Assembly: GCA_045226015.1 (NCBI GenBank)
Contig: JBGVBY010000013.1
Coordinates: 28,908-92,907, forward strand
From: Bacilli bacterium
GTDB taxonomy: Bacteria; Bacillota_I; Bacilli_A; RFN20; CAG-826
Length of the DNA stretch: 64,000 nt
Direction: 5' to 3'
Shown one piece after another: positions 776 to 48,004 of the stretch (position 1 is its first letter; each line of letters opens with the position of its first letter). A program made the position numbers and the translations under genes. Below the pieces are notes generated by a model, which saw only the letters and a program-made list of their open reading frames with translations, was not told the DNA's origin and did no database searches.

Positions 776-792
776 ATGGAGCAGGTGACGGG
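776..792 (-). repeat. att core (integrase-proximal copy of tRNA-Gly 3' end)
   Basis: ATGGAGCAGGTGACGGG at 776-792 vs ATGGAGCAGGCGACGGG at 47988-48004: 16/17 identical. Confidence 0.9.
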
Positions 793-10957: not shown

Positions 10958-11357
10958 CAACTACACCATAACAATTGGTTTTATGCTCAAAGAACCTGAG
11001 CTTGAAGAAAACGAGAGTAAAGAGAAAGTCTGCATCTTCTCTCTTGTCACTCAAGATCACGGAAAAACTAAAGAAGTTCCGTGTATGGCGACCGGTAAGA
11101 CATGCGACACATTGCTTGTATACGGTCAAAAAGGCTCGTTTTGGGCTGTTGGAGGCATTTTCTATGAGTTTGTGGCTGATAACTCAAAAAAGAAAAAAAC
11201 AACGCTCAAATGCCTTGAAATTGAATTACTGAAAAAACCGGAAGTTCCTGGCATTGGCATTGAAGAATTCGTTGGTAAGTATGCACCTAAAGAAATTATC
11301 AAGCGCGCAAGAGAAAGAAGAGAAAAGAACAATGCTACTGAAAAAACAAGTTCTTGA
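10950..11357 (+). CDS. Divergent single-stranded DNA-binding (OB-fold) protein
   Basis: N..ITIGFM.KEPEL...FSL....EVPCMATGK.CD.L..Y.QKGS..AV.G resembles SSB strand order. Confidence 0.55.
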   Translation: MLNNYTITIGFMLKEPELEENESKEKVCIFSLVTQDHGKTKEVPCMATGKTCDTLLVYGQKGSFWAVGGIFYEFVADNSKKKKTTLKCLEIELLKKPEVPGIGIEEFVGKYAPKEIIKRARERREKNNATEKTSS

Positions 11358-11526
11358 TGGCGTTGCGCTATCTTCAGAAGAAATCAACGAAATGATGGAA
11401 ATGCTTAAAGAAGGCAAATACTACTTCTATGAAGTTCTCGAATACTACGGAATTAGTTATTACGAGTTCAAATGTTATAAGAAAGTCTACGAAGGGAAGG
11501 ACAAATTATATGAAAACATCAATTAA
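11332..11526 (+). CDS. Small hypothetical protein
   Basis: Operonic ORF, start refined to ATG 11332. Confidence 0.45.
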   Translation: MLLKKQVLDGVALSSEEINEMMEMLKEGKYYFYEVLEYYGISYYEFKCYKKVYEGKDKLYENIN

Positions 11527-11983
11527 ATTCACAATTCCAGGCGAACCATTTGGAAAGCAAAACCTTAGACCTAAAATCGTTTGTGGACATGCTAGAGCAT
11601 ACTCACCTAAAGAAAACAATATGTATATGGATCGCATTATTGGAATCTTAAACCAAAACATGGTATTCACTGAACCATTTATCTTTCCTAAAGGAACATC
11701 GGTGGCAATTACAATAACTGCCTTCTTCAAAATTCCTGATGGTAATTACAAGTATTACAAGAGTGAAAAACGTTCGCGTTATAACCAAGAAGGACAAGAT
11801 ATGCTTGCTGGAAAGATTAGACCAACCAAAAAACCTGATTGTGACAATATCAGTAAAGTCATATGCGATGCCATCTCTCATCAAGGTCGTGTTTGGTACG
11901 ACGACAACCAAGTTGTTGTTGACCTAATTATGAAATACTATGACACGAATCCACGAGTGGAAGTCATGATCGAGGAAATCTGA
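11510..11983 (+). CDS. rusA: RusA-family Holliday junction resolvase
   Basis: FTIPGEPFGKQ..RP, KPDCDNISKVICDAI, YDDNQVV, PRVEV motifs. Confidence 0.9.
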   Translation: MKTSIKFTIPGEPFGKQNLRPKIVCGHARAYSPKENNMYMDRIIGILNQNMVFTEPFIFPKGTSVAITITAFFKIPDGNYKYYKSEKRSRYNQEGQDMLAGKIRPTKKPDCDNISKVICDAISHQGRVWYDDNQVVVDLIMKYYDTNPRVEVMIEEI

Positions 11984-11984
11984 T

Positions 11985-12392
11985 ATGCAAAAGTGGATAG
12001 GTGTAGGGAAGATTGATGGCGAGCCAATGAAAGTCCAATATGGCAATCAAGAATGTTTGTTAATTTGGATTTGTTGCCCTCGCAGTTGGTCTCCAAAGAA
12101 TGAAGATAACATTCCGGTTATGTTCATCGGCAAACGAAAAAAAGCGCTTGAGCAAGCAGGCATAGATAAGTTCGATGGCACTCTTGTGTATGTGATTGGT
12201 GAAATCAGCTCACGAATCAAAATCATCGAACCGAAAGCAGTTAGCATTGGAGTTTGCGTATTCGCTACTTCAATCACATTCTGGGATACAAAGAGTATCT
12301 TGGATAAAACTAAATGTAGAGTAAATAACGAAGTCATATTTGACACATCCGGCATGGAAGAAATAGAGGTGATGATTGATGAAAAAGTTTAG
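11985..12392 (+). CDS. Second divergent SSB-like OB-fold protein
   Basis: MQKWIGVGKIDGEP.....NIPVMFIGK......G..VYVIGEI.SR...V.A.SI.F. Confidence 0.45.
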   Translation: MQKWIGVGKIDGEPMKVQYGNQECLLIWICCPRSWSPKNEDNIPVMFIGKRKKALEQAGIDKFDGTLVYVIGEISSRIKIIEPKAVSIGVCVFATSITFWDTKSILDKTKCRVNNEVIFDTSGMEEIEVMIDEKV

Positions 12393-12888
12393 TGAAATTG
12401 AAAAAGACTATAAGGCAAAACAGTTGAAATGGAAGACTCATATCCGTTTAGAACAAAACAAGTTCAAACGATTCTGGATGTGGGTGTGGTTCTTAATCGC
12501 ATTCCCATTCGTGTGGCTCTTCTATAACTGCCGAGATTGGCGAAGTCTGGTTTGTATCCTCGTCTCGTTTCTCCTATGGTCAGCAAGTGTATGGATTTGG
12601 TACCTATTAGCAGTTTTAACTGGCTGGAATACTGATACTGCAAAGTGGTTCATCGGTATCGGTAGTGCAGTTTGGATTTGGTGGGTAAGCCCAGTTGGTA
12701 GTCCATTCATCCTATTAGTTACGATCACTGCGATTGGAATAAAAGCATTATTCAACAAAATTAAAGAAAAACGACAAAAGAAACAACTTTTGCGAGAAAA
12801 TGCTAAAAAATGTCCATACAAAATTGAAGAAGATGAATTACCTGATTACAACCCAGAGTATATTCCAAAAGAGTGGAGAGAAAAGTAA
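12376..12888 (+). CDS. Membrane protein (about 3 hydrophobic segments)
   Basis: Trp-rich hydrophobic stretches. Confidence 0.6.
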   Translation: MMKKFSEIEKDYKAKQLKWKTHIRLEQNKFKRFWMWVWFLIAFPFVWLFYNCRDWRSLVCILVSFLLWSASVWIWYLLAVLTGWNTDTAKWFIGIGSAVWIWWVSPVGSPFILLVTITAIGIKALFNKIKEKRQKKQLLRENAKKCPYKIEEDELPDYNPEYIPKEWREK

Positions 12889-13061
12889 TGACTTGCCCGT
12901 GTAAAGACTGCTCCAAAAGAACCTCTGACTGCCACGGAAAATGTGCCGGTTATCAAGAGTGGTCAAAGTTAAATGAAGAAGCTCGCAACAAACGGAATGA
13001 AGCAAGTTTATCCGCTTATCTATCAAGACCGAAATATCGCAAACGAAGGAGAATAAGATGA
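12888..13061 (+). CDS. Small Cys-rich phage protein
   Basis: CPCKDC....DCHGKCAGYQEW. Confidence 0.6.
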   Translation: MTCPCKDCSKRTSDCHGKCAGYQEWSKLNEEARNKRNEASLSAYLSRPKYRKRRRIR

Positions 13062-13453
13062 ACAAAGATGGTAAACCGACCGATGTTCGAGATTACATTT
13101 CTCGCTACATTGAATTTCAAGAGCTGACAATTAGTGCTCAAGCTGAACTTGATGCATTGATTGCTGAGCAACAACATTTGATTCCAGCAATGGATCGTGT
13201 GAAAACCGCTGAATTAGAAGTGCGCATCACAAATGCTCGTACTTACTTAAGCAGGTTAAAAAAGATTATTAGTGACTGGGGTGATGCCTTAGCGGCTCTC
13301 GGTCAAACTTATAACAAAACAGAGTATGAAATGTTCAACATTCTGATTATCAAAGGCATACCGCCAAAGAAGACAAAGTGGGCATTACAAACCTGTTACA
13401 ACTTCCGCGCTAAAGTTTTTAAGGACATCGCGAGATTGGAGAAGAAAGAATGA
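13058..13453 (+). CDS. Hypothetical protein, possibly late-gene activator
   Basis: Helical N-terminus, HTH-like C-terminus, near end of early operon; assignment weak. Confidence 0.35.
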   Translation: MNKDGKPTDVRDYISRYIEFQELTISAQAELDALIAEQQHLIPAMDRVKTAELEVRITNARTYLSRLKKIISDWGDALAALGQTYNKTEYEMFNILIIKGIPPKKTKWALQTCYNFRAKVFKDIARLEKKE

Positions 13454-13815
13454 AATCGTTAGAAGAAATTAAAAAGATTATCAATTTGCAAATCATCCGT
13501 GAAGGCGAAGATGGATTCCACGCCATTTGGACTGACCCAGTGACTAGATATAGATATTCAATCATTCTGTCTTGGGGTGGTGGTTGGGAGCACTTCTCTA
13601 TCAATCCAATTAGCAAAAATAAAACTCCAGAGTGGGAGTTCATGTGCAAGATGAAAGAAATGTTCTTTAGAGATGATGAAGCGTGTGTTGAATATCATCC
13701 TAAGAAAGAAGATTATGTTGATCAATTGCATCATTGTCTTCATATCTGGAGACCAATTGATGAACCATTACCAGTACCGCCACCAATCTTTGTTGGAATA
13801 GGCAGAAAGGAATAA
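13450..13815 (+). CDS. Conserved phage protein of unknown function
   Basis: GWEHFSI....KTPEWEFMCKMKEMFF..DEACVEYHPKKEDYV..H.HCLHIWRP motif common in phages. Confidence 0.7.
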   Translation: MKSLEEIKKIINLQIIREGEDGFHAIWTDPVTRYRYSIILSWGGGWEHFSINPISKNKTPEWEFMCKMKEMFFRDDEACVEYHPKKEDYVDQLHHCLHIWRPIDEPLPVPPPIFVGIGRKE

Positions 13816-13817
13816 TT

Positions 13818-14144
13818 ATGAGCACACCTAAAATTGACTTAAAACAAGTTGTTGAAAAATGTGAAGGTTGTCTTAAACCCATCACAGTGAAAGAGGTGAC
13901 TGAAATAGCACAAGGAAGTTTATCTCTTCTCTATAATCAAGGAACAATCCTTAAAAGAGTTGAAAAGACTATTGGAGAACAAGACTGGAACATTCTCGTA
14001 ACAAGTGTACTAGGCACGTTCTTGAGCTCTCTATATGCTTCCACCGAATTAAACGGTGACTTAGGAAAAGCTGCTAAGTTTGGACAAGATATCGGCGCTA
14101 GTGGAATGGCTGTAAAAAGAGGAAATAAAGATGAAAATTCATAA
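13818..14144 (+). CDS. Hypothetical phage protein
   Basis: 108-aa operonic ORF. Confidence 0.55.
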   Translation: MSTPKIDLKQVVEKCEGCLKPITVKEVTEIAQGSLSLLYNQGTILKRVEKTIGEQDWNILVTSVLGTFLSSLYASTELNGDLGKAAKFGQDIGASGMAVKRGNKDENS

Positions 14145-14367
14145 TTGGCACACTCTTGCAGTATTAAGTAATCTTGCGTTCTTCGTAATGATGGTCGTGT
14201 TCCTCTTCGTGACTCAAAGAGACTTTGCTGAATATGACTATAGTGATTATCTACTTGTTCTATTGATAAGAGAAGGAATCATCTTACTTGTTCAAATTGG
14301 TTGGAACTTGCTCTTATATGCAATACCAAGATTCTTCTTACATCCTGAAAACAAAGAACCGAAATAA
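14131..14367 (+). CDS. Small two-pass membrane protein
   Basis: Two hydrophobic segments; last gene of early operon. Confidence 0.55.
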   Translation: MKIHNWHTLAVLSNLAFFVMMVVFLFVTQRDFAEYDYSDYLLVLLIREGIILLVQIGWNLLLYAIPRFFLHPENKEPK

Positions 14368-14394
14368 AAGGAAGGCATTAAGCCTTCTTTTTTT
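14367..14394. terminator. Bidirectional terminator between converging early and late operons
   Basis: GAAGGC-ATTAA-GCCTTC (14371-14387) with T7 downstream and A-rich upstream. Confidence 0.8.
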
Positions 14395-14400
14395 CCGTTC

Positions 14401-14571
14401 TTATTTACGTTTTCTAAGCAGTACGTTACCAGCTTCACCCCAACCAGCCATAACGATTATCCATAGAAATGGAATTGCGATGTATGTCTGACTTTTGAGG
14501 AAAACAAATGTTAACCATATGCCTAGTGCGAGTAATATGCCTGCTACAAGTATGAATCCAAATGCTTTCAT
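14401..14571 (-). CDS. Small two-TM protein with basic C-terminus, holin-like (56 aa, not in ORF track)
   Basis: MKAFGFILVAGILLALGIWLTFVFLKSQTYIAIPFLWIIVMAGWGEAGNVLLRKRK; last gene of late operon. Confidence 0.55.
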   Translation of the reverse strand: MKAFGFILVAGILLALGIWLTFVFLKSQTYIAIPFLWIIVMAGWGEAGNVLLRKRK

Positions 14572-14575
14572 AATC

Positions 14576-17500
14576 TTATAATATCATATCAATTTCTTCA
14601 TCAGTTAAGCCTTTATTCTTTAACCAACGAGTGAGCACTTGAATCTTATCTTTTCCGATATTCCATCCAGCAAGACGGTAAATAAGGTTTTTGATTTGTG
14701 GAGATACTCTCAAGTGAGTGACATATTTGACCGCATCTTCCTTATTAGTAAATGCTTTGACATTGAAGTAGTAGACATAGAATTCATCGTAACTAATACC
14801 GGCTTTGTTATAACATTGAGCCTTTGCATAGACTTTTTTGTTATAGATACGTAAAGCGGATTCAGCACCGAGAACTTCACGATAAACTTCTCTTTGAATG
14901 ACTGCCGCGTTCTCTTCATCGATAGTGTAGTTCTTAAGAGCTTCACCAATCTTCTTACAATTTTCAACTGCTTGCTTATATGCAGCGTTAATCATAACTT
15001 GAATGACACGAGATTCATCGTGTTTTTCTTTTGCTGACTTATCTGGATTATCATCAATCTCTTTGATTTGTTTACGTAAGTCCGCAATCTCATTATTACA
15101 AGTGTTGAGATAACTTGCTTGAATAGTAGCAATCGCGTCACCATCGGTCTTGTCATAAAGGATTTGTTCGCGATAATCGTAGAAGTCTTTAGAATATCTA
15201 CTCTTTTCGACTGGATCAATGAGATATTGGTCTTTAACGATTCTCTCTAATTTGTACCAACTTGCTTCATCAGAAGTTAATGGTAAGAGAATATCACCGA
15301 TAATACCTGTGTATTGGTCTAAAACATATTCAACTTTAAGTGGTGAGATTCCAAATACTTTACCAATGAAACGAGAGATATAAGATGTATCTTTTTCGTA
15401 TTGTTCTGTTGGTCTTGTGTTATCCCATTTAGAAGAAACGATTTGACCACCGTACCAAGTTCTATTTTTGGTAGCATCATCAATGGCTTGGAAGAATCCA
15501 AGAGAGATGCCGGTTCCAGAAATAGGAGAATTGGCTTCTAATAAGGCATATTTAAGCGCTTCTTCCATTGCGTTAGTATTTCCTTTAGCAGTATCAAATG
15601 CGCCTGTTACGATAGCGTTAAACGCACTAATGACACGACCTTTAGGAATACGGATGAATTGTTCACCAACTTTGATTAGGTAGTAGTTGTTCTTAATGCT
15701 TTGGTTGAGTGATTTATAGTCTTCATCATCCCAATAAAGCAATTCGTTGAGTAATTGAGTACCAATACCAAGAATTAACATCTTTAAGATAAGTTCAGCC
15801 CATTCTTTAGCACTCTTTGGAGCAATGAATGTTCTCATCATCTTTGTGAAACCTTGAATGTTGGCGTTCAAGAACAAACCAAATGTGTTATTGATTTGTC
15901 TTCCAACTGTACCAGAACGAGAGAAGTTCAATGTGATTTCGTGAGCTTCATAGACACCACGAGTCATAATTTGCTTGTTAGACATGCTATTTAGCCCTTT
16001 AGCACGTTCTTTATAGAGTTTATTAGTTGTGGCTAGGTATTGAGCATAACGTGTCGCTACTTCGATGATTTCATTAACACGCTCAATTGCTTTCCACGGC
16101 TTGACAACATATTCTAACCCTGAACTCATCTTCTTCTTATCGGTATAGATTTCAGTTGAAGTCATAACTGATGTTCCGATACCGCCACTAGCAACGAATG
16201 CTTGATATTTGGCATCGTTAGTAATAATGCTCTTATATGCTTGTGGAAGATTTCTTAAAACACTGGTCATACCAGTTGGAGAATAGAATGATGCATCCCA
16301 TAAGTCACGGATAGCGTTTCTTAATCCGAAGAAAGGATTGTAAGTGGTTAACAAGTTCTTTACAACCTTTTGTGCTTTAGCAATGAATTTCATTCCAGGA
16401 ATGTTAAGAAGAGTGTCATTATAAACACCAGCTAAGGCTTGTAAACCTTCCATTACATTGGCGTTAACCAAATAACTATGTGATTCGCCACCTTCATAAT
16501 ATGTAACCACTTGTCCATCAAGTGCTGGTCTAGTGAGATAATAAGTCATACTAGAATCAGTTGATCGTGGTAATTCTTCTTTCTTTAATTCTTCAGAAAC
16601 AACGTATTCATTGAGTTCACCATAACTTTTGCTTGCGTTAATCAATGTTTTAATTAACTCGTTCATAGCAACTTTTTGATGAATCTTGACTGTTTGCATT
16701 TGCATTGAATCAAACATATCTTTGATGACTAAATCACTGCCTTTAGCAAGTCTTAGTGTGCTTGATTGCATAGACATTGAAATACCAGCAGTTGGATTGA
16801 TAATCATTTCTCTATATGTTGGGACATAGTGAGAATAGTATTTTTTCATCCATTCATACGCTGACTTACTGAGATAACCACCTTCATATTGCATTCTTAA
16901 AAGTTCACGATTGTATTTCCAAACTTCTTCTCTCATATCCTTAAACATTGGATAATCAGCATCAATTTGTTCTAATCGAGCGTTAATATCTTCAGCATTG
17001 AGAAGTCTTAAATACTTTTTGACTTCGTTAAAGGTATCTAAAGCCTCTCCTGTAAGTTCTACGCTTCTTTCCATAGCAGTCTTGTGTGTCAACTCATTTA
17101 CAGTTGCTTCGTCCATACAGACGCCTTTTTCGATTGCTTCGGAAAGTAGTGGGAAATGTTCGCTAATCTTAACTAATAAGTCCGCTGGCATAGTTCTTGT
17201 TTCTAACCATTTGCCAAAGACTGTTTTTCTTTCTTTAGGCTCACTCTTTGAGAACTTTTCAATATCTTCGATAGATACTAAATCAGTGCCTAAAGAAGCA
17301 TTTAATCTATCCATTTCAACGTATAAAGCAAGAGATTCATAGAAATGACTCATTCCTTCTTCTAACTTTATTCCGTTGTCCTTAAAATACTTGTTTAATT
17401 CATCAACAATACCGTTTTTGCCGTTATAAAGACCTTTGGTATAGAATTCAACTTTATTTTCTTCAACACTTCTAGAGAAACCGTTTTGAGCAACGCTATT

Positions 17501-19807
17501 AGCGATGGAACTTGCCATTCTAATTTCTTCGGTTTTTTGCATTGCTTCACGTTGACTATAACCGAACTTTCTTAAAGCGTTTTCAATAGCCGCGGCACTG
17601 TTGGATAATTTGACCGCCAGTGTTTCAGTTTGATATGAAATGTTTTGTAACCAAGAAGCAGTGGACTTGATTGACGCTTTTCCGACACGAATCTTTTTTG
17701 TTAAAACTGGTTCTTCCATTGTTCTAACAAGAGCACCCATTTCTTCTTCAAACACTTCCATTGGATTAACCGTTTCAGTTGGGAGCATTGGTTCTGGCTC
17801 AATTGCTTCACCTTCAGTAACTTCTTCAACTGGAGTTAAAGCGCTGTCCATGGTGTCAGCAATCTTTCTTAAATTATCAATTTTAGATAATGCGCCTGGC
17901 TTACTTCTGAAATAAGCAGCTAATCTATTTGCCATAGCAGTTTGTTTTGCTAATTGAGTAGCTTCATCTAAGGATAATCCGTTTTGGACTTGATAAATCT
18001 TGATGTATTTATCGACTTCCATTTTGAAAGATTCATCCATTGTGACAAGTTTATCGGCAACAGCCATAATGTCACTATAGATTTCACCATTTGCTGTTTT
18101 AATTAACTCTAAAGAGTTAAGAGCAGTTGCTTCTGCAACGCTGTTTTCACCGACAACAACGAGTTTACCTTCACCATCATAGAATGACTTGACTTCGCCG
18201 TTTTCAACGTAGTCCATAATCTCGGTATTGTTTTTAATTGCAGTATTAACATCTTCGATATTGTTAATTTCAATATTCAAATCTTCAGCAACTTCTTGAA
18301 CTTTGCTTTCAACCTTTTTCTCATATTCAGCCTTTAAGTCATCACCAGTGATTCCATTTGATTCTAATTCAGCAAGCAAATTATCTTGTGCTTTCATATA
18401 AGCCTCATTGGCTTTGAATGCTTTTTGAATAGCACCCTCTAGCTTTGTTCTTTGTGCTTCACTTAAATCTGGATTAGTTCTAACTTGTTCTAAAGCAAGA
18501 TCAATGTTAGTTTTCTCGCTAATATCAATCTCTTCCATCTCAACGATTTTTGAGAATGTGCTATTAAGTCTTTTCGCAGCCTTGGTTAAGTCATCTTTTG
18601 CATCAGCATATTCAGAGTACGCTAAAGCACCTTTTTGACCGACTTGTTTGCCGTTAATAGTGGTCTTACCTAATTTGTAGTATTTTGTACCTTCACCAAC
18701 GGCACCGAGAATACCACCAACAACGAATGATTGAGCTAAACCAGCCCAGAATTCGCCACTAGCATATTCTCCACCTAAATCTAAATCATAATCATATGAA
18801 ATTTTCTTTAATAAAGGATTGGCGACATCTGATAATACTTCTTCGAAACCTTCAGATAAGAAACCAGCAACCATTTTACCGCCTAATGAAGATGTGAATT
18901 TCTTGACTGCTGCGTTTTTTAATGCCGCCTTTCCGATAACACCGGATGCAACGTCAGTACCAATACCACCAAGTAATTCAGTACCAGCTTCAACAGCACC
19001 GGTTAACAAACCATATAAAGTAGCTTGATGGAGATTAGCACCTTCATTTAATGCTTCTTCTGCGCCTTTACCTGCAGCACCTGTAGCCATTACACCTAAC
19101 GAGAGTGCTTGAGCACCCTTTGCGGTTAAGCCTGCGCCTTCGCCTATGCCAGCAGTCACATACATACCGACAAGTTGACCGGCACCTTCAGCAATGCCTA
19201 ATACAGCATCACCAAACCATCCAGCATCTTTTTCTAAAACATCATGACCATAAGCGTATTTTTCTCTCCACGCTGTAATTTCTTCTGATGTAGCACCCCA
19301 TTGACCTAAACCTAATGAAGACCACGCTTGACCCATGTCAGCCCAGTATTCATCTCCATATTCAACGGCATTGCCAATCATTTTGCCAATACCCCAAGGA
19401 GTGAAGTTAGCAAATGTTTCTGTGAAGTTAGCAAGGTTGCCTGCCATATCAATTGAAACAAAGTCTTCTGCCCATTGGGTATCAGCACCAAACCAAGAAC
19501 CGATATCACCGGCAATAGTGACGCCTAAATCGATAATACCTTCAAACATTGACACAAAGCCTCTACCAAAGGCATTAGCGATGTTATCGATTGTTCCAAA
19601 GATGTCATCCCACCAAGAACGTGATTGTTGTTGTTCTTGTTCTAAGGAATCTTCGTACTCAGTATCGTTACCATATGTAGAGATATCAATACCAGCACGA
19701 GAAAGAGCTCGTGCATCACCAAGAGTTAAAGTGGTGGTGCTACCGAGCGGTGTTTTTCTCATTTGTGCTAAAAATTCAGCAGTAGATAAAATGTCTTTTT
19801 CAGCCAT
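14576..19807 (-). CDS. Large internal virion / DNA-ejection-type protein with C-terminal LPD38-like domain
   Basis: 1743 aa; Gly/Ala-rich hydrophobic helices near N-terminus; C-terminal YLIKVGEQFIRIPKG..ISP..NRTWYGGQIV..SPLKVEYVLDQYTG pattern; position after tail genes as in podoviruses. Confidence 0.6.
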   Translation of the reverse strand: MAEKDILSTAEFLAQMRKTPLGSTTTLTLGDARALSRAGIDISTYGNDTEYEDSLEQEQQQSRSWWDDIFGTIDNIANAFGRGFVSMFEGIIDLGVTIAGDIGSWFGADTQWAEDFVSIDMAGNLANFTETFANFTPWGIGKMIGNAVEYGDEYWADMGQAWSSLGLGQWGATSEEITAWREKYAYGHDVLEKDAGWFGDAVLGIAEGAGQLVGMYVTAGIGEGAGLTAKGAQALSLGVMATGAAGKGAEEALNEGANLHQATLYGLLTGAVEAGTELLGGIGTDVASGVIGKAALKNAAVKKFTSSLGGKMVAGFLSEGFEEVLSDVANPLLKKISYDYDLDLGGEYASGEFWAGLAQSFVVGGILGAVGEGTKYYKLGKTTINGKQVGQKGALAYSEYADAKDDLTKAAKRLNSTFSKIVEMEEIDISEKTNIDLALEQVRTNPDLSEAQRTKLEGAIQKAFKANEAYMKAQDNLLAELESNGITGDDLKAEYEKKVESKVQEVAEDLNIEINNIEDVNTAIKNNTEIMDYVENGEVKSFYDGEGKLVVVGENSVAEATALNSLELIKTANGEIYSDIMAVADKLVTMDESFKMEVDKYIKIYQVQNGLSLDEATQLAKQTAMANRLAAYFRSKPGALSKIDNLRKIADTMDSALTPVEEVTEGEAIEPEPMLPTETVNPMEVFEEEMGALVRTMEEPVLTKKIRVGKASIKSTASWLQNISYQTETLAVKLSNSAAAIENALRKFGYSQREAMQKTEEIRMASSIANSVAQNGFSRSVEENKVEFYTKGLYNGKNGIVDELNKYFKDNGIKLEEGMSHFYESLALYVEMDRLNASLGTDLVSIEDIEKFSKSEPKERKTVFGKWLETRTMPADLLVKISEHFPLLSEAIEKGVCMDEATVNELTHKTAMERSVELTGEALDTFNEVKKYLRLLNAEDINARLEQIDADYPMFKDMREEVWKYNRELLRMQYEGGYLSKSAYEWMKKYYSHYVPTYREMIINPTAGISMSMQSSTLRLAKGSDLVIKDMFDSMQMQTVKIHQKVAMNELIKTLINASKSYGELNEYVVSEELKKEELPRSTDSSMTYYLTRPALDGQVVTYYEGGESHSYLVNANVMEGLQALAGVYNDTLLNIPGMKFIAKAQKVVKNLLTTYNPFFGLRNAIRDLWDASFYSPTGMTSVLRNLPQAYKSIITNDAKYQAFVASGGIGTSVMTSTEIYTDKKKMSSGLEYVVKPWKAIERVNEIIEVATRYAQYLATTNKLYKERAKGLNSMSNKQIMTRGVYEAHEITLNFSRSGTVGRQINNTFGLFLNANIQGFTKMMRTFIAPKSAKEWAELILKMLILGIGTQLLNELLYWDDEDYKSLNQSIKNNYYLIKVGEQFIRIPKGRVISAFNAIVTGAFDTAKGNTNAMEEALKYALLEANSPISGTGISLGFFQAIDDATKNRTWYGGQIVSSKWDNTRPTEQYEKDTSYISRFIGKVFGISPLKVEYVLDQYTGIIGDILLPLTSDEASWYKLERIVKDQYLIDPVEKSRYSKDFYDYREQILYDKTDGDAIATIQASYLNTCNNEIADLRKQIKEIDDNPDKSAKEKHDESRVIQVMINAAYKQAVENCKKIGEALKNYTIDEENAAVIQREVYREVLGAESALRIYNKKVYAKAQCYNKAGISYDEFYVYYFNVKAFTNKEDAVKYVTHLRVSPQIKNLIYRLAGWNIGKDKIQVLTRWLKNKGLTDEEIDMIL

Positions 19808-19866
19808 AATACTTAATTTTTGTTAAAATTTTTAACGATTTTCGATATTTAAGACGCGAAATTCGT

Positions 19867-20703
19867 CTATATTGAAATTTTTGGTCTTCTATTACCAACT
19901 AATGCGTTGTCGATGTAGAAGAGTTTTCCGTTATAGTACATAAGGTATTTTTGACCGACTTGTACTAAATCGCCATTCTTAGCACTGGTATAGAAGTTTT
20001 GAAGTTCATCCTTGTATTTTTGTGAACTACCAGTACCACGTTCGATCTCAATTTGATTTAATTCATATTTAACATCTTTGTTATTTAAGATGTCTTTGTA
20101 TCCAATACCATTACTGAGACCGACGGTTTCGTTAATCTTGTCAGCCCATTGACTATCAGCGTTAGCAAGATATCCACTGTATGAAGAGTAGTAGTAATCA
20201 AACATCTTCTTTTGGTCATCAGTGAAACTGTCATAGTATTCAGACTTGAGATAATCTAAATCTTCTACTGATGTGGCTTCTTGCATCATAGTCATTGCTG
20301 CTTGCCATCTATCGGTCTTTTGAGCTTCTTCATCAGCAACTCTCTGTGAAGCAATATCCATTAAGTTTGCTTGATGTGTTTCATCTGCACCCATAATGGC
20401 TCTATTGTAAGCACCAGCAATACCTGCTCTAGTGGATTCAGCCATACCTTGTCCAGAGAAACCAGCGTTAGCTAAAGAATTACCAACGTACTTTTGAGCT
20501 TGGTCTCTTGCAACAGATGCTTGAATCTTGCTAGAAAGCATATCCTTGTAGGATGTGTACTCAAGTGCATCGTACTTATCGCCACTGGTTAAACCATTAC
20601 TGGAACCTGTGCCACCTCCACTTGGATTACTTTCTGGACTGTTTGCTCCAATTGAATCGCCGAATGTTTTGACCCATTGATCTTTATTTGTCTGTACCGC
20701 CAT
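19867..20703 (-). CDS. Putative internal virion (ejection) protein
   Basis: Gly/Ser/Ala/Gln-rich low complexity (NAGFSGQGMAESTRAGI) directly upstream of the large ejection-type gene. Confidence 0.45.
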   Translation of the reverse strand: MAVQTNKDQWVKTFGDSIGANSPESNPSGGGTGSSNGLTSGDKYDALEYTSYKDMLSSKIQASVARDQAQKYVGNSLANAGFSGQGMAESTRAGIAGAYNRAIMGADETHQANLMDIASQRVADEEAQKTDRWQAAMTMMQEATSVEDLDYLKSEYYDSFTDDQKKMFDYYYSSYSGYLANADSQWADKINETVGLSNGIGYKDILNNKDVKYELNQIEIERGTGSSQKYKDELQNFYTSAKNGDLVQVGQKYLMYYNGKLFYIDNALVGNRRPKISI

Positions 20704-21823
20704 ATTCAATTTCCTCCTTATGATTTTCGATTAGTAGATTATTATCCTCTCCACTTGAGGGATCTATTACTTCAGGGACGATGACTTTTGCAGCCTCTTC
20801 CTCTTCTCTTCTATGAGCTTCTTCGATTCTTTCCTTATAAGTCTCTTGATAAGATTTAGGAATGAACTCTTTTAAGTCATAGTATTTGTTATATTCGTTA
20901 ATAACGCGGATTTTATCGCCAAGCCATTTATATAAGAAGTTGACGTTGGTTGAACCGGCAAAGCCACCGCTAATAAATCCGAATGTGGCACTTCCGATTC
21001 TGAAGATAAAATTCCATAATGCTTCAGCGGTTCCAACACCTTCGTTAATTTCAGTAACGAGAAGTGATGCTAATGTGATATAGATAATTCCACTGATGCC
21101 TTTTGCGATGAATGAACGTCTCATCGCTTTAATTCTTTCTCTATCAGTTGCTGGAGCAATTTCAAGAGATTCTAAGTTAGCACTTTTATTTCTATCCGCA
21201 GTGGTGTAGTACGCTGCAGTTTCGGCTTCAACTGTAACTGAGCCGTTTAAGACTTCTTCAACATAGAAGGCTAATGTGTCTCTAATTGCTGGAATCAAGA
21301 TTTCGGTTCCATCTTTTAGTTTTCTAACAATGTCTTCACCAACTTTTCCTGTTGGTTTTTCACCTTCTTTTAATCCACTGATAATTGGAATGTCAGTCTC
21401 GATAGCATAATCAACGATGATTTCGGCTTCCATACGTGACATACCGTGTTTAGTAAGATGTTTAATTTTCTTTTCTCTTACTTGCTTTTCGGCATACCAG
21501 GAGATGAATTGATCGAAGAATACAATTCTTCCGACTTCGACAAGTGTCTTGACTAGGCTATTGAAGAGTTCTCTTCTTTTGTTGTATTTGCCATCTTCTT
21601 TAGCTTTTAAGGTTTCATCAATTGCAATGAATCCTAGAACCATCATCACTAATGCTAATGCGTTATTGAAGATTGCTCTGGTTGCCCATTTGTTTGGATC
21701 AAAGTTGTTTGGAGAGAATACTAAGTTCCATACCCAAGAGCCGATAATGATGAATATAACCATCAATACGCCAATGGCGACGAAACCCATTTTAAGGATA
21801 TATTCAGGTTTCTTATTCTTCAT
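20684..21823 (-). CDS. Multi-pass membrane protein (2 TM - soluble domain - 2 TM)
   Basis: Hydrophobic segments at about aa 13-33, 52-70, 245-260, 270-290. Confidence 0.65.
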   Translation of the reverse strand: MKNKKPEYILKMGFVAIGVLMVIFIIIGSWVWNLVFSPNNFDPNKWATRAIFNNALALVMMVLGFIAIDETLKAKEDGKYNKRRELFNSLVKTLVEVGRIVFFDQFISWYAEKQVREKKIKHLTKHGMSRMEAEIIVDYAIETDIPIISGLKEGEKPTGKVGEDIVRKLKDGTEILIPAIRDTLAFYVEEVLNGSVTVEAETAAYYTTADRNKSANLESLEIAPATDRERIKAMRRSFIAKGISGIIYITLASLLVTEINEGVGTAEALWNFIFRIGSATFGFISGGFAGSTNVNFLYKWLGDKIRVINEYNKYYDLKEFIPKSYQETYKERIEEAHRREEEEAAKVIVPEVIDPSSGEDNNLLIENHKEEIEYGGTDK

Positions 21824-22085
21824 CTTCTCTCACCGCCTTTATTTTTTTATAAATGGATATAATCCAAAGGGCTAATACTGCTCCAGTAAGTAGAACTAGA
21901 GCGAACATACATGCCCAAGAAGATTTGAACCAAGCAATAACTGCTTCCCATCCTTCTGTAGCAACGTAGTAAGTAATCATTATGATTACAGCGACTAATG
22001 CTACTGTGAGAAGAATTTTAATTGTGGACATAACGGTCTTACTGATGTTGCCGTTTTTCTTCTTAAACTTATTTTTAGGTTTCAT
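21813..22085 (-). CDS. Two-pass membrane protein
   Basis: Basic N-terminus, two hydrophobic segments. Confidence 0.65.
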   Translation of the reverse strand: MKPKNKFKKKNGNISKTVMSTIKILLTVALVAVIIMITYYVATEGWEAVIAWFKSSWACMFALVLLTGAVLALWIISIYKKIKAVREDEE

Positions 22086-22636
22086 ACAATGTCAGCCTTT
22101 TCTTCTTTTCTGCGACGCTCTTCTTCTTTAACTTTACGTTCTTTTTCAGCAGCTTCTTTAGCATCTAACTCATCTCTAGCGTCGCGGTATAAGACTTGTT
22201 TTCTTCGCATTTCTTGAGTTAAACCGACATCTAATCCATAAGCTGCTGCCGCTCCTGCAAATTCACAACCTAGAATGAGAACTAAGTCATCAACAATTAC
22301 TTTGCAGAAATAGGCGAGTGCAAATGCCATACCAACGCCTAACACATAAGTTAACATAGTGGCTTTCTTCTCAACCTTTTCTTGATGTTTTGCTTTCTTA
22401 TACATCAAGACCGCTGATACAACGAGAGCAAGAATACAGCCAATAGTTAATCTAACAGATTCGTGAGTGTTCTCTACGAAGTCGAAGTATTCATTCCACT
22501 TAGCGCCAAACACTGCAACGATAGGAGTGATAATAGCCGCCCATTCACCGCCCTGACATGCCCAATAAGCATTGCGGTAGTATTTTCTAGGGCATCTAGT
22601 TTTAAGAGGTTCTTTTTTTGGTTTTTTGTTTGCCAT
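22082..22636 (-). CDS. Multi-pass membrane protein with charged C-terminal coiled coil
   Basis: 3-4 hydrophobic segments; GGAGGT RBS before ATG 22636. Confidence 0.65.
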   Translation of the reverse strand: MANKKPKKEPLKTRCPRKYYRNAYWACQGGEWAAIITPIVAVFGAKWNEYFDFVENTHESVRLTIGCILALVVSAVLMYKKAKHQEKVEKKATMLTYVLGVGMAFALAYFCKVIVDDLVLILGCEFAGAAAAYGLDVGLTQEMRRKQVLYRDARDELDAKEAAEKERKVKEEERRRKEEKADIV

Positions 22637-22647
22637 ATGCATACCTC

Positions 22648-23295
22648 CTATTTACTTGGTTTTTGCAAATATTTTTTGAATGTTTCTTCGCTAATACCAA
22701 GAGATGTTAACACTGCTGATTGAGAGAAAATTGTCATCAATAATTCTTTCATTTCTTTATTTTCAGCCGTGATTTGATCGTTCTTTTCACAAACTTCATT
22801 TAATTTCTGCTCGGTTAATTCGAGTGATTTAGATAATGTGCCCATAGTAGAAATCGCTTTGTTGTAATTTTCGTTTGTGATTTCGTAATCTTTTTTCAAC
22901 TTTTCAGCAAGTTCCTTGTTATCATCAACAATTCTTCTTGCTAGGGAAACTTCACCAATTGCTTTTTTGATGTTGCTTCTATTCAAAAGTGAAGGAACAA
23001 GAGAAACAACAACACCAATGACAGCACCTAATAGCGTGCCTAATGTTGTTCCAAAGATTTGGGTATCTCTGATTTCCTTGTATTTTGCATTTAATTCATC
23101 AAGAAGTTTTTGAATTTCATCTTGAGTTGGGTCTGTCGAACCCTCTTCAATGGTTTCAGCAGCTTGTTCACCTTCAGCGTAAACTACTGCAATTTGGCTG
23201 TCATATGAGTGATACATTGACATACCCGCGCACATGCCTAAGCCAGCACTAGCAAGCAGGCAGACGCCTATGAGTCCTAATGTTTTTTTCTTCAT
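22648..23295 (-). CDS. Signal-peptide/membrane-anchored coiled-coil protein
   Basis: MKKKTLGLIGVCLLASAGLG signal-like N-terminus, internal TM (GTTLGTLLGAVIGVVVSLV), heptad C-terminus. Confidence 0.6.
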   Translation of the reverse strand: MKKKTLGLIGVCLLASAGLGMCAGMSMYHSYDSQIAVVYAEGEQAAETIEEGSTDPTQDEIQKLLDELNAKYKEIRDTQIFGTTLGTLLGAVIGVVVSLVPSLLNRSNIKKAIGEVSLARRIVDDNKELAEKLKKDYEITNENYNKAISTMGTLSKSLELTEQKLNEVCEKNDQITAENKEMKELLMTIFSQSAVLTSLGISEETFKKYLQKPSK

Positions 23296-23900
23296 AAGAT
23301 TTCTCCTTTCAACTTATTAAAGTAATCTCTGAACATGGTTTTTGAATATTTAAGGTCATGTGCCTTTTGCAGTATCTTTAACTGCTTTTGAGTTAATTTG
23401 TGAGATTTATTCTCACATTTGAAGTAGAAGAGTAAGAAATTCCATAACCTCTTTTCTTCCATTGGGTACCAACCATACTTTTTGCTATCTTCAACATAAT
23501 TGAAGAAACATCGGTCATAGTTCTCTAATACCCTTTTGGCAACGTATTTGTCTTTGACAACATCGTGCCTTACAAAGTTCCTATCGCTTCCATAAACGAC
23601 TTTCATATCAGGTGATTCAGTAACGAAGTAGATCATCTTTTTATATTTAATGATGTCGTTCCATTCTTTTAACGTGTAGAACACACACTCCACGATATGT
23701 CCGTCAATGTCGAATTGCCTGGATGCATCCGCATTTTCATTCTTACTTCTTACAATGACTTTGAAGTCTATGTCTCCATAATCCTTAAGATATAGAGAAC
23801 TACCTTCTTGCAAGACACAAATGATTGAATGTAGTGGATATCCGATGGCACTTAGATTCGCGAGAAGCTCGGAGACGAACATATTAGTTATGTTCTTCAT
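23292..23900 (-). CDS. Putative Pol-beta-superfamily nucleotidyltransferase
   Basis: hGS-x(8)-DxD signature CVLQEGSSLYLKDYGDIDFKVIV plus a later beta-strand acidic residue (IVECVF). Confidence 0.6.
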   Translation of the reverse strand: MKNITNMFVSELLANLSAIGYPLHSIICVLQEGSSLYLKDYGDIDFKVIVRSKNENADASRQFDIDGHIVECVFYTLKEWNDIIKYKKMIYFVTESPDMKVVYGSDRNFVRHDVVKDKYVAKRVLENYDRCFFNYVEDSKKYGWYPMEEKRLWNFLLFYFKCENKSHKLTQKQLKILQKAHDLKYSKTMFRDYFNKLKGEIL

Positions 23901-24135
23901 TTACCTTTGCCTTAGCAGATTCAACGGCATTATTCCATTCAACGAATTCTGGTAAATCGCAGCCCATATGAGCAAGTGATTTTCTGATAATGGCAATTTC
24001 TTGTGTTAAGGTGTATTCCTTACGGATTTCACCAACGATAGCGATATCGTGTGGATTAACATCAGCGACTTTGCTCGCTGCGTCTCTTGCATCGTCAAGA
24101 GCTCTTTGATTTGGATTCTTTTTAATTAGTGACAT
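23884..24135 (-). CDS. Small tail-associated phage protein
   Basis: IRKEYTLTQEIAIIR.....EFVEWNNAVESAK resembles a family commonly found next to tail fibre genes. Confidence 0.5.
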   Translation of the reverse strand: MSLIKKNPNQRALDDARDAASKVADVNPHDIAIVGEIRKEYTLTQEIAIIRKSLAHMGCDLPEFVEWNNAVESAKAKVNEEHN

Positions 24136-25156
24136 ACCGTAATCTCCTTTCATAGTATTGGTATATTCGCTTTATCAAGTTGTAGTTATTACCTTTCTTG
24201 ATATGAGATATGTAACAGTCGACACATTGCTGAATTTTGGCAAGTGTCATTCTAGGATTTGAGATTTGCTTTTTAATTCTGCGCTTTGCTCTTTGGACAC
24301 TGGCTCTTTGAGCAGTCATTATGATTTTGCCTGTCTTGGAGTAGTGGTAACTGAATCCTAGAAACTTAGATGGTTGAGAGAGTTTAGCAATAAATGTTTT
24401 GTTCTTGTTGATTTTGAGACCTAATTTGTCGAGTTCTTCTTCAATGAACTTTAAGAGGTTGACCAGATGTTCTTTGCTGTGATGAATGATTTTGATGTCA
24501 TCCATGTATCGAATGTAGTATTTGATATGCCAACGTTCCTTGATGGCGTGATCTAAGTCGTTTAGCATTGATAACTCAATTAACTGAGATATTTGACTGC
24601 CAAGACCGATTCCTTCATCGCCTTTGAAACTGTCTATGATTTCAAACACTCTTTCTCTAGCCCAGTCATCACCGATTAGTTTTCCGATTTGTCTTTTGGC
24701 AATTTCGTGTTTAGTGCTACCAAAGAAATTTTTAATATCCAGTGATAGAACATATCCGTTTGCTTGATGATGTCGGAAAAACTTAATGAGATGGACTTTG
24801 AATCTTCTTCTAGCAAAATCTGTTCCTTTGCCTCTTTGACAAGCGCAATTGTCGTAGATGAAGTGTCTAACGACTTCTTTTGTTAGATAGTTATCGCAAA
24901 GTGACCTCTGGAATACTCTATCTTTTAATCTAGTTGCGACTATGTCTCTTACTTTAGGTTCTCTAACTTGGAATGTGATGTATCGGTCTATTTTATAGGT
25001 TCCGTTCATCAAAGAGTTGGATAATGCATATATGTTTTGGCAGCGATTCTTGTTATATCCAATAACGCTGTCTTTCCACATTACATTGTGATTACAATGA
25101 TTTAATGCTCTGTTCAATGCCTTATAAGAACATACAAGTTCTTTAATAGATGTCAT
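24122..25156 (-). CDS. DGR reverse transcriptase
   Basis: KVRDIVATRLKDRVFQ, NCACQRGKG, LDIKNFF, GIGLGSQISQ, YIRYMDD, FLG motifs; 344 aa with no maturase/endonuclease domain; TR and avd upstream. Confidence 0.95.
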   Translation of the reverse strand: MTSIKELVCSYKALNRALNHCNHNVMWKDSVIGYNKNRCQNIYALSNSLMNGTYKIDRYITFQVREPKVRDIVATRLKDRVFQRSLCDNYLTKEVVRHFIYDNCACQRGKGTDFARRRFKVHLIKFFRHHQANGYVLSLDIKNFFGSTKHEIAKRQIGKLIGDDWARERVFEIIDSFKGDEGIGLGSQISQLIELSMLNDLDHAIKERWHIKYYIRYMDDIKIIHHSKEHLVNLLKFIEEELDKLGLKINKNKTFIAKLSQPSKFLGFSYHYSKTGKIIMTAQRASVQRAKRRIKKQISNPRMTLAKIQQCVDCYISHIKKGNNYNLIKRIYQYYERRLRYVTN

Positions 25157-25415: not shown

Positions 25416-25832
25416 TTAACCATATCTTTTACTGTCGTTTTCAATCCAATTCTTCAAATCAGATTGAGCGGCAAGTATTAGACCTATCCAAGTTTTATGC
25501 TTTTTATCATTGATAGTTCCAAAGGTTTTATAAGCTACATCAATTAGAGTTAACATATTATGAGTTTCTGCGTACGCGAGTTTTTGAAACTTTCTACGTA
25601 ATTCGTAGTCACTTTTCTTAAACTCTTCTTTCACGTAAACAGAATTCGCTTTAATAGCGTTGGATAACATATTCATAGAACTATCGAGTATCTTTTGAGC
25701 AATTAACCAACGATATCTTTTAGGAATTACTTTCTCATTTGTGACTGCTTTAATGGTATAGGCATTTAGTTTGGTAACCGAAGTCCACCAAGCCATTTTA
25801 GTTTCGCCTCTTTCACTTTCAACGACTGACAT
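25416..25832 (-). CDS. avd: DGR accessory variability determinant (Avd-like four-helix bundle)
   Basis: 138 aa basic helical protein, IPKRYRWLIAQKI...AIKAN...R...Q..A...W...I pattern, between target and TR. Confidence 0.85.
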   Translation of the reverse strand: MSVVESERGETKMAWWTSVTKLNAYTIKAVTNEKVIPKRYRWLIAQKILDSSMNMLSNAIKANSVYVKEEFKKSDYELRRKFQKLAYAETHNMLTLIDVAYKTFGTINDKKHKTWIGLILAAQSDLKNWIENDSKRYG

Positions 25833-25917: not shown

Positions 25918-27243
25918 TTATTCTTCAGCAGAATCTGCTGAGATGACACAAGCGGGGACGACGCCATAAGAGCCGTTAGCGCCGTAGTAGTAACGGGTAC
26001 CTGACGGGACGACATAGACCGCATAGTGGACGTGGCCACGAAAGGCGGTTCTCAACCACCAATAGCCGTAACTTGACCCAACAATTTTCTTACGAAGATT
26101 GTTTTGGTCAGTGCTATTGTCACTAGCGCTTAATCCGTTTGTAAATAAGGCAAGCCTTGTATCGCTTTCATCCGCGTCTGTAGAGAAGTTAACGTCCTTA
26201 CTACAAAGTAGGAAGAATTTATCGGTGAAATTATGTGCGCCTGTATTTCCGTAAGTGCCATTTGTGTTATCTTTCCAAACCTTATTTTCGGTGGATAAGA
26301 TATCTAAGAATGCTGGATCAATACCGTGCATAAATGGAACGCCAGCGTGGTTGCTTGGTCTTAAATCCCATTTAGTTTGTGGACTCCACCAGCCTGAACC
26401 GGTACCATTGAGATATTGTCTAATTGCGGATTCCATATAGTTATTGGAACCGTAAGAGACTCTATCGTTATGATTCTCACAACCAGAAGCGGTTAAGTCG
26501 CCATCACAATCAGTTACATCAGCAACGATTGCTAATCCGCTTTCAACGGATGCTCTATCTGCGCCATAGGTGGTAACAGTCACGCTTGTAGAAAGAGTGG
26601 TGTTGCTTGGTTTAGCACAATAGAATGGTTGAGTTGCGGTGAATGATAATGTGGAAGAGATTTTGTATTTACCTGCTGGTAATTGGCTTCCATCAGCTGC
26701 AGCCCATTTTGCTTCTTGAGCATCAAATTGCATTGAGATGAATGCATCGTGCATAACAAGTGTTAACTTGTCATTTTCAACGTGGGCGATATCGAACACT
26801 AATTCACTTGCGCTTTCGTGAACGGTAATGGTGTCATCAACACTTGGTGTTCCAGTAACAACAATGCCATATTCACTTAAAGTAACGAGTGCTCCGTGAT
26901 TGTCTTTCCAACCATCAGCGGTGTAGGTAAACACATAATCAATGTTTCCTGCTTCGTGTTCTTTTTCTAAGAATGTGGCTTCTGTGAACGCGATTGATAA
27001 ATCGTTGTTGCTTGGAGTGACAAGAATTGAATTTTCTTTTTCAACTGTGATTTGATCACCGACATCGAAGTAACTCTTGCCTTTGCCAGCATTAAGAATT
27101 TCCTTAATTCTCGCGAATGTCATAACACTTCCGTTGAAATCAAGATTCAAACCCATTAAAGCATTGGCAAGTGTTGCTCTTAGTTTCGCCTGTTCTTCTT
27201 TGTAGACTTTTGCGCCTAACATTTCCTTAAAAATTTCAGACAT
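25918..27243 (-). CDS. Primary DGR target: tail/receptor-binding protein with C-terminal DUF6273/C-type-lectin-like domain
   Basis: YGSNNYMESAIRQYLN...KFFLL...WWLRTA...GVVPACVI; in tail module; VR1 at 3' end. Confidence 0.85.
   Translation of the reverse strand: MSEIFKEMLGAKVYKEEQAKLRATLANALMGLNLDFNGSVMTFARIKEILNAGKGKSYFDVGDQITVEKENSILVTPSNNDLSIAFTEATFLEKEHEAGNIDYVFTYTADGWKDNHGALVTLSEYGIVVTGTPSVDDTITVHESASELVFDIAHVENDKLTLVMHDAFISMQFDAQEAKWAAADGSQLPAGKYKISSTLSFTATQPFYCAKPSNTTLSTSVTVTTYGADRASVESGLAIVADVTDCDGDLTASGCENHNDRVSYGSNNYMESAIRQYLNGTGSGWWSPQTKWDLRPSNHAGVPFMHGIDPAFLDILSTENKVWKDNTNGTYGNTGAHNFTDKFFLLCSKDVNFSTDADESDTRLALFTNGLSASDNSTDQNNLRKKIVGSSYGYWWLRTAFRGHVHYAVYVVPSGTRYYYGANGSYGVVPACVISADSAEE
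25954..26049 (-). repeat. DGR variable repeat VR1
   Basis: 96-nt ungapped match to TR with 19 mismatches, all at TR adenines. Confidence 0.97.
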
Positions 27244-47987: not shown

Positions 47988-48004
47988 ATGGAGCAGGCGA
48001 CGGG
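47988..48004 (-). repeat. att core within tRNA-Gly 3' end
   Basis: Matches 776-792 at 16/17 positions. Confidence 0.9.

Follow-up and report, generated by a model that had tools for sequence, protein, structure and literature searches.

How does a tailed phage cross the boundary of its host if it encodes no recognisable enzyme against peptidoglycan, and what role do four adjacent membrane proteins play among its virion genes? This question is raised by a prophage in a 64,000-nucleotide (nt) stretch of DNA, referred to as the window, from a Bacilli bacterium of the lineage RFN20; CAG-826 (assembly GCA_045226015.1, contig JBGVBY010000013.1, positions 28,908 to 92,907). The prophage spans positions 776-48004 of the window, is integrated in a tRNA-Gly gene and is complete within the window, representing an intact temperate podophage. 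An earlier note, made from the sequence alone, had seen no endolysin but a block of membrane proteins in the late operon, suggesting a wall-less or peptidoglycan-reduced host and an undescribed membrane-only apparatus for lysis, budding or DNA entry; it proposed searches for peptidoglycan hydrolases, for host mur and pbp genes and for the block in related prophages. Here we report that the four-gene block is a real, conserved and clade-defining core module, undescribed and of no known fold, and that it resides in a phage that has shed every wall-degrading function. We give about an even chance to the reading that the block is the release machinery of the phage, acting by membrane rupture or by egress, which is the best supported of the readings considered and makes the block the leading candidate for the way in which tailed phages leave wall-less bacteria.

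Profile searches of the prophage open reading frames (ORFs) agreed with the earlier note in that no endolysin could be recognised. In a Pfam scan that covered 62 prophage ORFs (29 late and right-end ORFs singly, 27 early ORFs as a set) no muralytic family was found, be it amidase, CHAP, M23, NlpC/P60, SLT, GH25, M15 or another, and PHROGs, run on 20 of the ORFs, and NCBIfam, run on 10, gave zero matches to muralytic families as well. The giant protein of 1743 amino acids (aa) encoded near the end of the late operon, the ejection-type protein in which the note had seen no lytic transglycosylase motif, matched LPD38 alone in Pfam and has no SLT domain. The search was also extended to the host, where a six-frame search of the whole genome for the three commonest lysin families revealed no Amidase_2, Amidase_3 or GH25 domain, the control genomes being matched.

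The host genome (1.17 Mb in 22 contigs, 95.5% complete and 1% contaminated) contains no match to PF00905, the transpeptidase domain of penicillin-binding proteins (PBPs), found in 10 of 14 control genomes, and no match to the Mur ligase domain PF08245, found in 12 of the 14. Eight contiguous genes of the dcw cluster of G058, a walled relative of the same order, were used as tblastn queries (divIB-like, murB-like, murG, ftsW, murD, mraY, murE/F and pbp2b, the names being inferred from the usual dcw order), and none of them had a match in the host; the flanking genes ftsA, ftsZ, era, cdd and ruvAB did. Genomes of the same genus and family showed 0-1 weak Mur-ligase-like match of about 410 aa, taken to be FolC-like, and several other families of the order 4-7 strong ones. 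Wall-bearing and wall-less families are known to be mixed within the uncultured Bacilli orders RFN20, RF39 and ML615J-28 (PMC10868615). As PBPs, Mur ligases and the genes of the lipid II pathway are absent at 95.5% completeness, it is strongly supported that the host is a peptidoglycan-less (Mollicutes-like) member of the Bacilli, and the suspicion of the earlier note on this point proved right.

The nearest GenBank phages by portal are Bacillus megaterium podophages of the genus Pagevirus (Page, Pony, Pascal, Palmer, Pookie and Pavlov), homology extending over the portal (22% identity, E 1e-21 to 2e-26), the major capsid protein (29%, E 4e-25) and the giant LPD38 protein. Both lineages share the order of the late genes, which runs from the small and large terminase subunits (TerS, TerL) over a small ORF, portal, scaffold, capsid, tail, fibres and a gene X to the giant gene and a small protein with two transmembrane segments (TMs). 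The window phage is thus Pagevirus-like, but identities of 22-29% make it a distant relative outside the genus. The two differ on either side of the giant gene. Ahead of it Page encodes an SLT lytic transglycosylase fused to NlpC/P60 (Page_19), whereas the window phage has, in the place of Page_19, a 280-aa protein (19867..20709, minus strand), which always precedes the giant gene and carries no hydrolase domain. Downstream of it Page encodes a 74-aa two-TM holin/antiholin, a Phage_holin_4_1 holin (Page_22), a 60-aa protein and an M15/PG_binding endolysin (Page_24), whereas in the window a 56-aa two-TM protein stands alone before the operon ends, both enzymes and the Pfam-type holin being absent. 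Page, in turn, has no membrane protein between its tail and giant genes and hence no four-gene block; it is a phage of about 40 kb with a walled host, in contrast to the 47 kb prophage of the window with its diversity-generating retroelement (DGR) and its wall-less host. This gene-by-gene comparison shows that the lineage has lost its entry lysin as well as its exit lysin and has kept one holin-shaped gene. Since the 56-aa gene is located exactly at the holin/endolysin site of Page, the classical lysis cassette has been reduced rather than replaced. In a wall-less host the loss of both lysins is predicted and by itself unsurprising.

The gene for the 56-aa protein (14401..14571, minus strand), the last of the late operon and the terminal two-TM protein of the earlier note, begins 4 nt past the stop of the giant gene; behind it, a terminator-like hairpin with a T-run (14371..14387, minus strand) closes the late operon at its convergence point with the early operon. 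In a relative that is 90% identical in DNA the ORF is kept with 11 synonymous and 3 conservative non-synonymous codon changes, indicating that it is real and under purifying selection. The protein has the features of a holin, being small, with two hydrophobic segments, a charged, basic C-end (LLRKRK) and a position late in the operon, and it corresponds in position to the Page holin/antiholin, the site behind the giant gene being the one at which Page has its holin/antiholin, holin and endolysin; no endolysin adjoins it. Neither the 56-aa protein nor any block protein matched a Phage_holin or TIGR holin model at E <= 0.05-0.1. We infer that the 56-aa protein acts as a holin.

The block itself, at 20684-23295, consists of four integral membrane proteins of 215, 186, 90 and 379 aa, as the earlier note had recognised, which contain 2, 4, 2 and 4 strongly hydrophobic segments, respectively. 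The hydropathy means lie between 1.7 and 2.9. The genes overlap with each other and with neighbouring genes by 4-26 nt, no terminator or above-chance internal promoter was found in or around the block, and the block genes are translationally coupled.

Block protein 1 (215 aa; 22648..23295, minus strand) has a basic N-end, a signal-like segment at residues 6-24 and a TM at residues 85-105, exposing, according to prediction, an acidic loop of about 60 aa on the outside and carrying a coiled-coil tail of about 110 aa in the cytoplasm. A signal-like start followed by an acidic or Ser-rich stretch was present in 9 of 9 homologues examined; the assignment as a lipoprotein was rejected, as no lipobox is conserved across the homologues. 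Block protein 2 (186 aa; 22082..22642, minus strand) is predicted to span the membrane four times with both ends inside (N-in/C-in) and ends in a highly charged C-tail. It contains two invariant acidic residues in TM4, D119 and E127, and an invariant cytoplasmic N-terminal motif, PLKxRxPxxY, whose extended form at residues 10-27, K-x-P-L-K-x-R-x-P-x-K-Y-Y-R-N-A-Y, is invariant across 20 homologues that are otherwise 40-94% identical, which points to a specific partner that it binds in the cytoplasm. Block protein 3 (90 aa; 21813..22085, minus strand) resembles a class II holin in shape, having two TMs, a lysine-rich N-end and a charged C-end. Block protein 4 (379 aa; 20684..21823, minus strand) comprises a TM1-TM2 hairpin, a cytoplasmic domain of about 165 aa, TM3-TM4 and a charged tail, with an invariant glycine zipper in TM4 (G282xxxG286xxxG290); its AlphaFold2 (AF2) model has a pLDDT of 76, the core of the cytoplasmic alpha/beta-domain exceeding 90.

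In all four proteins the distribution of Lys and Arg follows the positive-inside rule, N-ends, even-numbered loops and C-ends being rich in these residues and odd-numbered loops being short and neutral or acidic, and all four are predicted to be N-in/C-in and inserted from the cytoplasm. The soluble mass of the block would thus be almost entirely cytoplasmic, with the acidic stretch of protein 1 as the only exposed part. The glycine zipper in TM4 of protein 4, the invariant Asp and Glu within a TM, the invariant cytoplasmic motif and the cytoplasmic bulk together suggest that the block proteins oligomerise into a single membrane complex whose core is polar or tightly packed.

None of the block proteins has a significant match in Pfam, PHROGs or NCBIfam. 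Neither the AF2 model of the 379-aa protein nor its cytoplasmic domain alone gave a fold match in the PDB with E < 0.4, a profile search against PDB sequences returned nothing, and a fold search of BFVD with the model yielded five uncharacterised phage proteins of about 300 aa and nothing else. Likewise, none of 50,697 GenBank phage records was matched in tblastn searches with the 379-aa protein or with two distant members of its family. We discarded two leads. The JGI label 'peptidoglycan biosynthesis protei...' on P0078 (179 aa), a homologue of the 186-aa protein in L005/G398, looks like an annotation mis-transfer, the genome having no peptidoglycan pathway. A conjugation-type reading, i.e. 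a type IV secretion system, had been prompted by PcfJ-like and PcfK-like genes in the early operon (8345-9766 and 7930-8493, plus strand), which also occur in the G058 prophage, and was given up as no ATPase or VirB-like family is encoded in or near the block. The PcfJ and PcfK families are known from the enterococcal conjugative plasmid pCF10.

A profile search with the 379-aa protein against 1.84 billion protein representatives identified 183 clusters (at 50% identity) of proteins that are, some short fragments aside, 320-420 aa long, and all sampled members are unnamed or 'hypothetical'. Homologues of the 379-aa protein form 63 clusters at 40-96% identity, many of them on contigs of 46-52 kb, the size of a whole phage genome, and those of the 186-aa protein form 28 at 40-94% identity. 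We read the context of the block in two free contigs, two IMG/VR contigs, a distant human-gut member and two prophages. The conservation in related prophages that the earlier note had proposed to check was found and extends to a large group of uncultured phages with contigs of 42-50 kb, the same four genes following directly after the nozzle gene in the same order in L001, L002, L028, L029, L030/L034, G058 and G398: a signal-plus-TM protein, a 4-TM protein of about 180 aa, a 2-TM protein of 70-97 aa and a 4-TM protein of 330-400 aa. Fibre and DGR modules shift around the block and in the window lie between nozzle and block. In comparison with relatives the 379-aa protein is 50-65% identical, as opposed to 24-33% for the portal, 25-27% for the capsid protein and 31-32% for the terminase, making it the best conserved protein of the phage. 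The 186-aa protein is 61% identical to its copies in L002 and G398 and the 90-aa protein 39-42% identical in L001, L002, L004 and G398, the 215-aa protein being the least conserved of the block.

The 379-aa family is confined to the window's own order in a 400-genome sample of the whole class Bacilli, and a 401-genome sample of the order contains 11 carriers of the block, 10 of which lack PBPs. We do not claim a strict link between the block and the lack of a wall, since the sample is dominated by the wall-less family and includes a walled carrier. G058 is a carrier with three PBPs, four Mur ligases and a dcw cluster, and it has two Amidase_3 genes on contigs other than that of its prophage. 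The prophage (C1:48385-96841, about 48.5 kb from integrase to giant gene) contains the block and a pair formed by a 287-aa protein and the giant protein. A lysin would be expected in a relative with a walled host, yet scans with Pfam (all ORFs of at least 70 aa) and PHROGs (unassigned ORFs) found no recognisable entry lysin, holin-family protein or endolysin. Thus, the explanation that the lysin is missing because the wall is missing fails for the clade as a whole, and the block is not simply a lysin substitute in wall-less hosts. Possibly the clade hides a muralytic function, uses host autolysins or, in the case of G058, infects a host with a reduced wall. The membrane-only apparatus of the earlier note stands in part: the block is real, conserved, unannotated and of no known fold, but the classical lysis cassette is reduced rather than replaced and the block also occurs in a relative with a walled host.

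What, then, does the block do? If it serves release, its proteins would at a late stage of infection be inserted from the cytoplasm into the infected cell's membrane, where the four probably form a single complex with its bulk facing the cytoplasm and with a glycine-zipper helix and buried acidic residues in the membrane. By disrupting or reshaping the single membrane, this complex would open a way out for the virions, which in a wall-less host would suffice without a muralytic enzyme. Among the roles that the earlier note had offered, release, be it by lysis or by budding, is favoured over DNA entry, as proteins with the predicted N-in/C-in topology and, in one case, a signal-like start would be at home in the producing cell's membrane and fit storage in a capsid poorly. 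For lytic release, at least one protein that damages the membrane is required. Among the proteins of the G058 prophage, the scan showed those of the block to be the sole credible membrane proteins, and in the G398 prophage the sole additional one is an early-region homologue of a 170-aa protein, so that the block is essentially the only candidate for the membrane lesion in these two prophages.

Comparison with holin-endolysin cassettes (lambda S/R, the phage 21 pinholin, PBSX XhlA/XhlB/XlyA) reveals features in common. The 56-aa and 90-aa proteins are likewise small, encoded late and charged at their C-ends, the 215-aa coiled-coil membrane protein is reminiscent of PBSX XhlA, the glycine-zipper TM of the 379-aa protein resembles that of the pinholin, and a function at the end of the cycle would be shared, for the block as proposed here. 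Unlike these cassettes, however, the window phage has no endolysin and no member of a holin family, the block lies inside the structural module rather than beside a lysin, and two of its members (186 and 379 aa) are large, strongly conserved and equipped with a folded cytoplasmic domain. Several observations weigh against a role in release. The block proteins lack homology to any holin family, and they are large and strongly conserved, whereas ordinary holins are small and evolve fast; the block is surrounded by virion genes, at the place that in T7-type phages belongs to the internal ejection proteins; the classical site of the window phage is already taken by the holin-shaped 56-aa gene, leaving the block free for another role; and in G058 the lysin-less phage with its block resides in a host that has PBPs and Mur ligases.

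The chance given to release includes a budding-like variant, which we consider quite unlikely on its own: the block might be a dedicated egress machine, facing the cytoplasm, that captures finished virions, perhaps via the nozzle, after whose gene the block is placed, and releases them in membrane-bound vesicles or by local remodelling instead of a holin burst of the classical type. The idea comes from short-tailed phages that infect mollicutes (Acholeplasma L3, Spiroplasma SpV3/C3/ai, Mycoplasma P1), which are likewise tailed phages of wall-less Bacilli and of which L3, SpV3 and ai are reported to leave by slow, budding-like release in membrane-bound vesicles and not by enzymatic lysis (review PMC13375369). 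The review names no release genes and gives no genome accession for L3 or the SpV3 group, precluding a comparison of genes. Mycoplasma phage P1 has only 11.7 kb, as compared to the 47 kb of the window prophage.

The strongest competitor of release is DNA entry, with the block proteins as virion-borne ejection proteins analogous to T7 gp13-gp16 or P22 gp7/gp20/gp16 that travel inside the capsid, leave it through the nozzle and form, together with the 280-aa and giant proteins, a DNA channel across the single membrane; we regard this as unlikely, yet as an alternative to be taken seriously. The position of the genes speaks for it. The block lies after the adaptor/nozzle genes, directly downstream of the nozzle gene in all the relatives listed above, and in the window immediately ahead of the genes for the 280-aa and giant proteins, mirroring the T7 order of portal, scaffold, capsid, tail tube and internal proteins, with sizes that rise towards a giant and a presumed membrane role as in T7 and P22. 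The rest of the late operon consists of structural genes, the block occurs throughout the clade, surpasses the capsid genes in conservation and is present in walled and wall-less hosts alike, and glycine-zipper helices would suit the formation of a channel. The proteins themselves argue against it. Ejection proteins should be stored in the capsid in soluble form and without Sec-type targeting, whereas the block proteins have, by prediction, integral-membrane topology, a signal-like start (protein 1) and TMs as hydrophobic as those of ordinary integral membrane proteins (mean Kyte-Doolittle 2.1-2.9), and in each of the four the charges are distributed according to the positive-inside rule, as for insertion from the cytoplasm. 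With the signal-peptide-like start of protein 1 in all homologues examined, such proteins would be expected to be captured by the membrane of the producing cell, and insertion from the outside would force the 165-aa domain and the charged tails across the bilayer. Moreover, the block has neither a lytic transglycosylase domain nor any sequence or fold similarity to the T7 and P22 proteins, the giant protein here is an LPD38 polyvalent protein and not a relative of T7 gp16, and Page has the same giant protein but no such block.

DNA entry can be assigned more economically to the giant protein itself. The 1743-aa LPD38 'polyvalent' protein (14576..19807, minus strand) is the orthologue of Page_20, with 22% identity over 838 aa (E 2e-20) and LPD38 near the same position in both; its LPD38 match in Pfam has an E of 7.8e-26 and 91.8 bits against a cut-off of 27, that of Page_20 96.3 bits. 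It has the hallmarks of a large polyvalent protein, i.e. an LPD-type domain, giant size and a location inside the portal/terminase virion module, and the giant proteins of relatives carry PBECR3, MPTase-PolyVal and ArdcN domains, all three of which are present in the G058 orthologue. Residues ~190-300 are Gly/Ala-rich and mildly hydrophobic with repeated GxxxG/A spacing (GIAEGAGQLVGMYVTAGIGEGAGL...GVMATGAAGKGA...) and are a candidate membrane-insertion region for DNA entry; the stretch is similar to parts of tape-measure and ejection proteins that are active at membranes. In phi24B, the LPD38 protein gp47 has been found in virions and an ejection function proposed for it, and LPD38-type large polyvalent proteins are predicted to be injected along with the DNA (Iyer et al. 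2017). Like phi24B gp47 the 1743-aa protein contains LPD38 and is encoded in the virion module, differing in that it has no recognisable enzymatic domain besides LPD38 and that its neighbour is devoid of the lytic domains of Page. By analogy, it is probably a virion-packaged ejection protein, and the Gly/Ala-rich stretch, the phi24B counterpart in virions and the predicted injection with the DNA make it the simpler candidate for entry.

A further alternative is that the block forms a superinfection-exclusion or receptor-masking complex, which stops further DNA entry or the loss of virions on membrane debris. Known exclusion proteins such as T4 Imm, P22 SieA, HK97 gp15 and T5 Llp are small membrane proteins or lipoproteins, receptors in wall-less hosts must be membrane components, and the block consists of integral membrane proteins with one exposed, fast-evolving acidic ectodomain in its least conserved member, all of which would agree with such a role. 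We nevertheless consider it decidedly improbable, because exclusion genes are normally accessory and variable and stand with early or lysogeny genes under a promoter of their own, whereas the block is core, invariant in order and translationally coupled within the late structural operon, has no flanking terminators and is the most conserved part of the phage. Finally, it is highly improbable that a divergent endolysin is hidden in the unassigned ORFs of the prophage, that the host makes some peptidoglycan and that the membrane proteins are ordinary holin accessories: many ORFs indeed have no family assignment, and the G058 prophage, without a known lysin in a host with PBPs and Mur ligases, could point to an unrecognised muralytic enzyme in the clade, but the host lacks PBPs, Mur ligases, MraY, MurG and FtsW at its level of completeness, Amidase_2, Amidase_3 and GH25 occur nowhere in its genome, and the two lysin sites of Page are held here by the domain-less 280-aa protein and by nothing.

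The block is embedded in a prophage of conventional layout. A 17-nt att core, ATGGAGCAGG[T/C]GACGGG, occurs twice in the window, zero copies being expected by chance: as attL (ATGGAGCAGGTGACGGG; 776..792, plus strand) at the left prophage end and as attR (ATGGAGCAGGCGACGGG; 47988..48004, plus strand), which overlaps the 3' end of tRNA-Gly(TCC) (47989-48062, minus strand). The integrase (924-2069, minus strand; Phage_integrase in Pfam) adjoins attL and is followed by a repressor (2207-2623, minus strand) and by the early/middle operon (2710-14367, plus strand), which includes YqaJ, RecT, RusA and SSB genes in addition to the PcfJ/PcfK-like genes. Its final gene encodes a 78-aa two-TM protein (14131..14367, plus strand), a small membrane protein with no assigned role. 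The late operon runs convergently to it from 43602 down to 14401 on the minus strand in the order small and large terminase, SU10-like portal, scaffold, capsid, two-part nozzle (35049-35795 and 28334-35056), fibre and DGR (target, Avd, reverse transcriptase), followed by two small ORFs, the four membrane proteins and the 280-aa, 1743-aa and 56-aa proteins. Six ORFs (44288-47828, plus strand) lie ahead of attR.

The DGR, with Avd at 25416-25832 and the reverse transcriptase at 24122-25156, apparently has two targets, at 25918-27243 (minus strand) and 9780-10442 (plus strand). The corresponding tail-associated 441-aa and early-operon 220-aa proteins both have a DUF6273-type variable C-terminus and share near-identical motifs (YGYWWLRTA.../YSTWWWTKTA... 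and ...GVVPAC/...GVVPC). A 202-aa protein (23292-23900, minus strand) is encoded after the reverse transcriptase, as is its G398 homologue (191 aa, 26% identity), and may be a DGR accessory gene that has so far gone unrecognised. The 469-aa protein adjoining attR (44288-45697, plus strand) weakly matches Amidoligase_2 (E 7e-4), also matches PHROG 16683, a family with no assigned function, and may be an accessory gene expressed in lysogeny. In the host DNA, the region at 54000-60000 of the window, encoding proteins of 767 and 1020 aa, has a G+C content of 29-32%, as compared to 35-41% elsewhere.

Gene-level study of how tailed phages enter and leave bacteria bounded by a membrane only is almost nonexistent, and the locus offers a clean comparative case, that of a phage lineage shedding its entry and exit lysins in a host that has lost its wall. 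For the membrane step, the block provides a concrete candidate in the form of four strongly conserved genes, with about 180 sequence clusters available. Should the block be an ejectosome after all, it would be the first one built of classical polytopic membrane proteins. If it is a self-sufficient rupture or egress module, it would extend the holin paradigm and could be of use where L-forms or mycoplasma-type chassis are to be lysed independently of a wall. If the egress reading is true, its four proteins would be the first molecular candidates for the budding-like release that has been reported for L3 and SpV3/ai.

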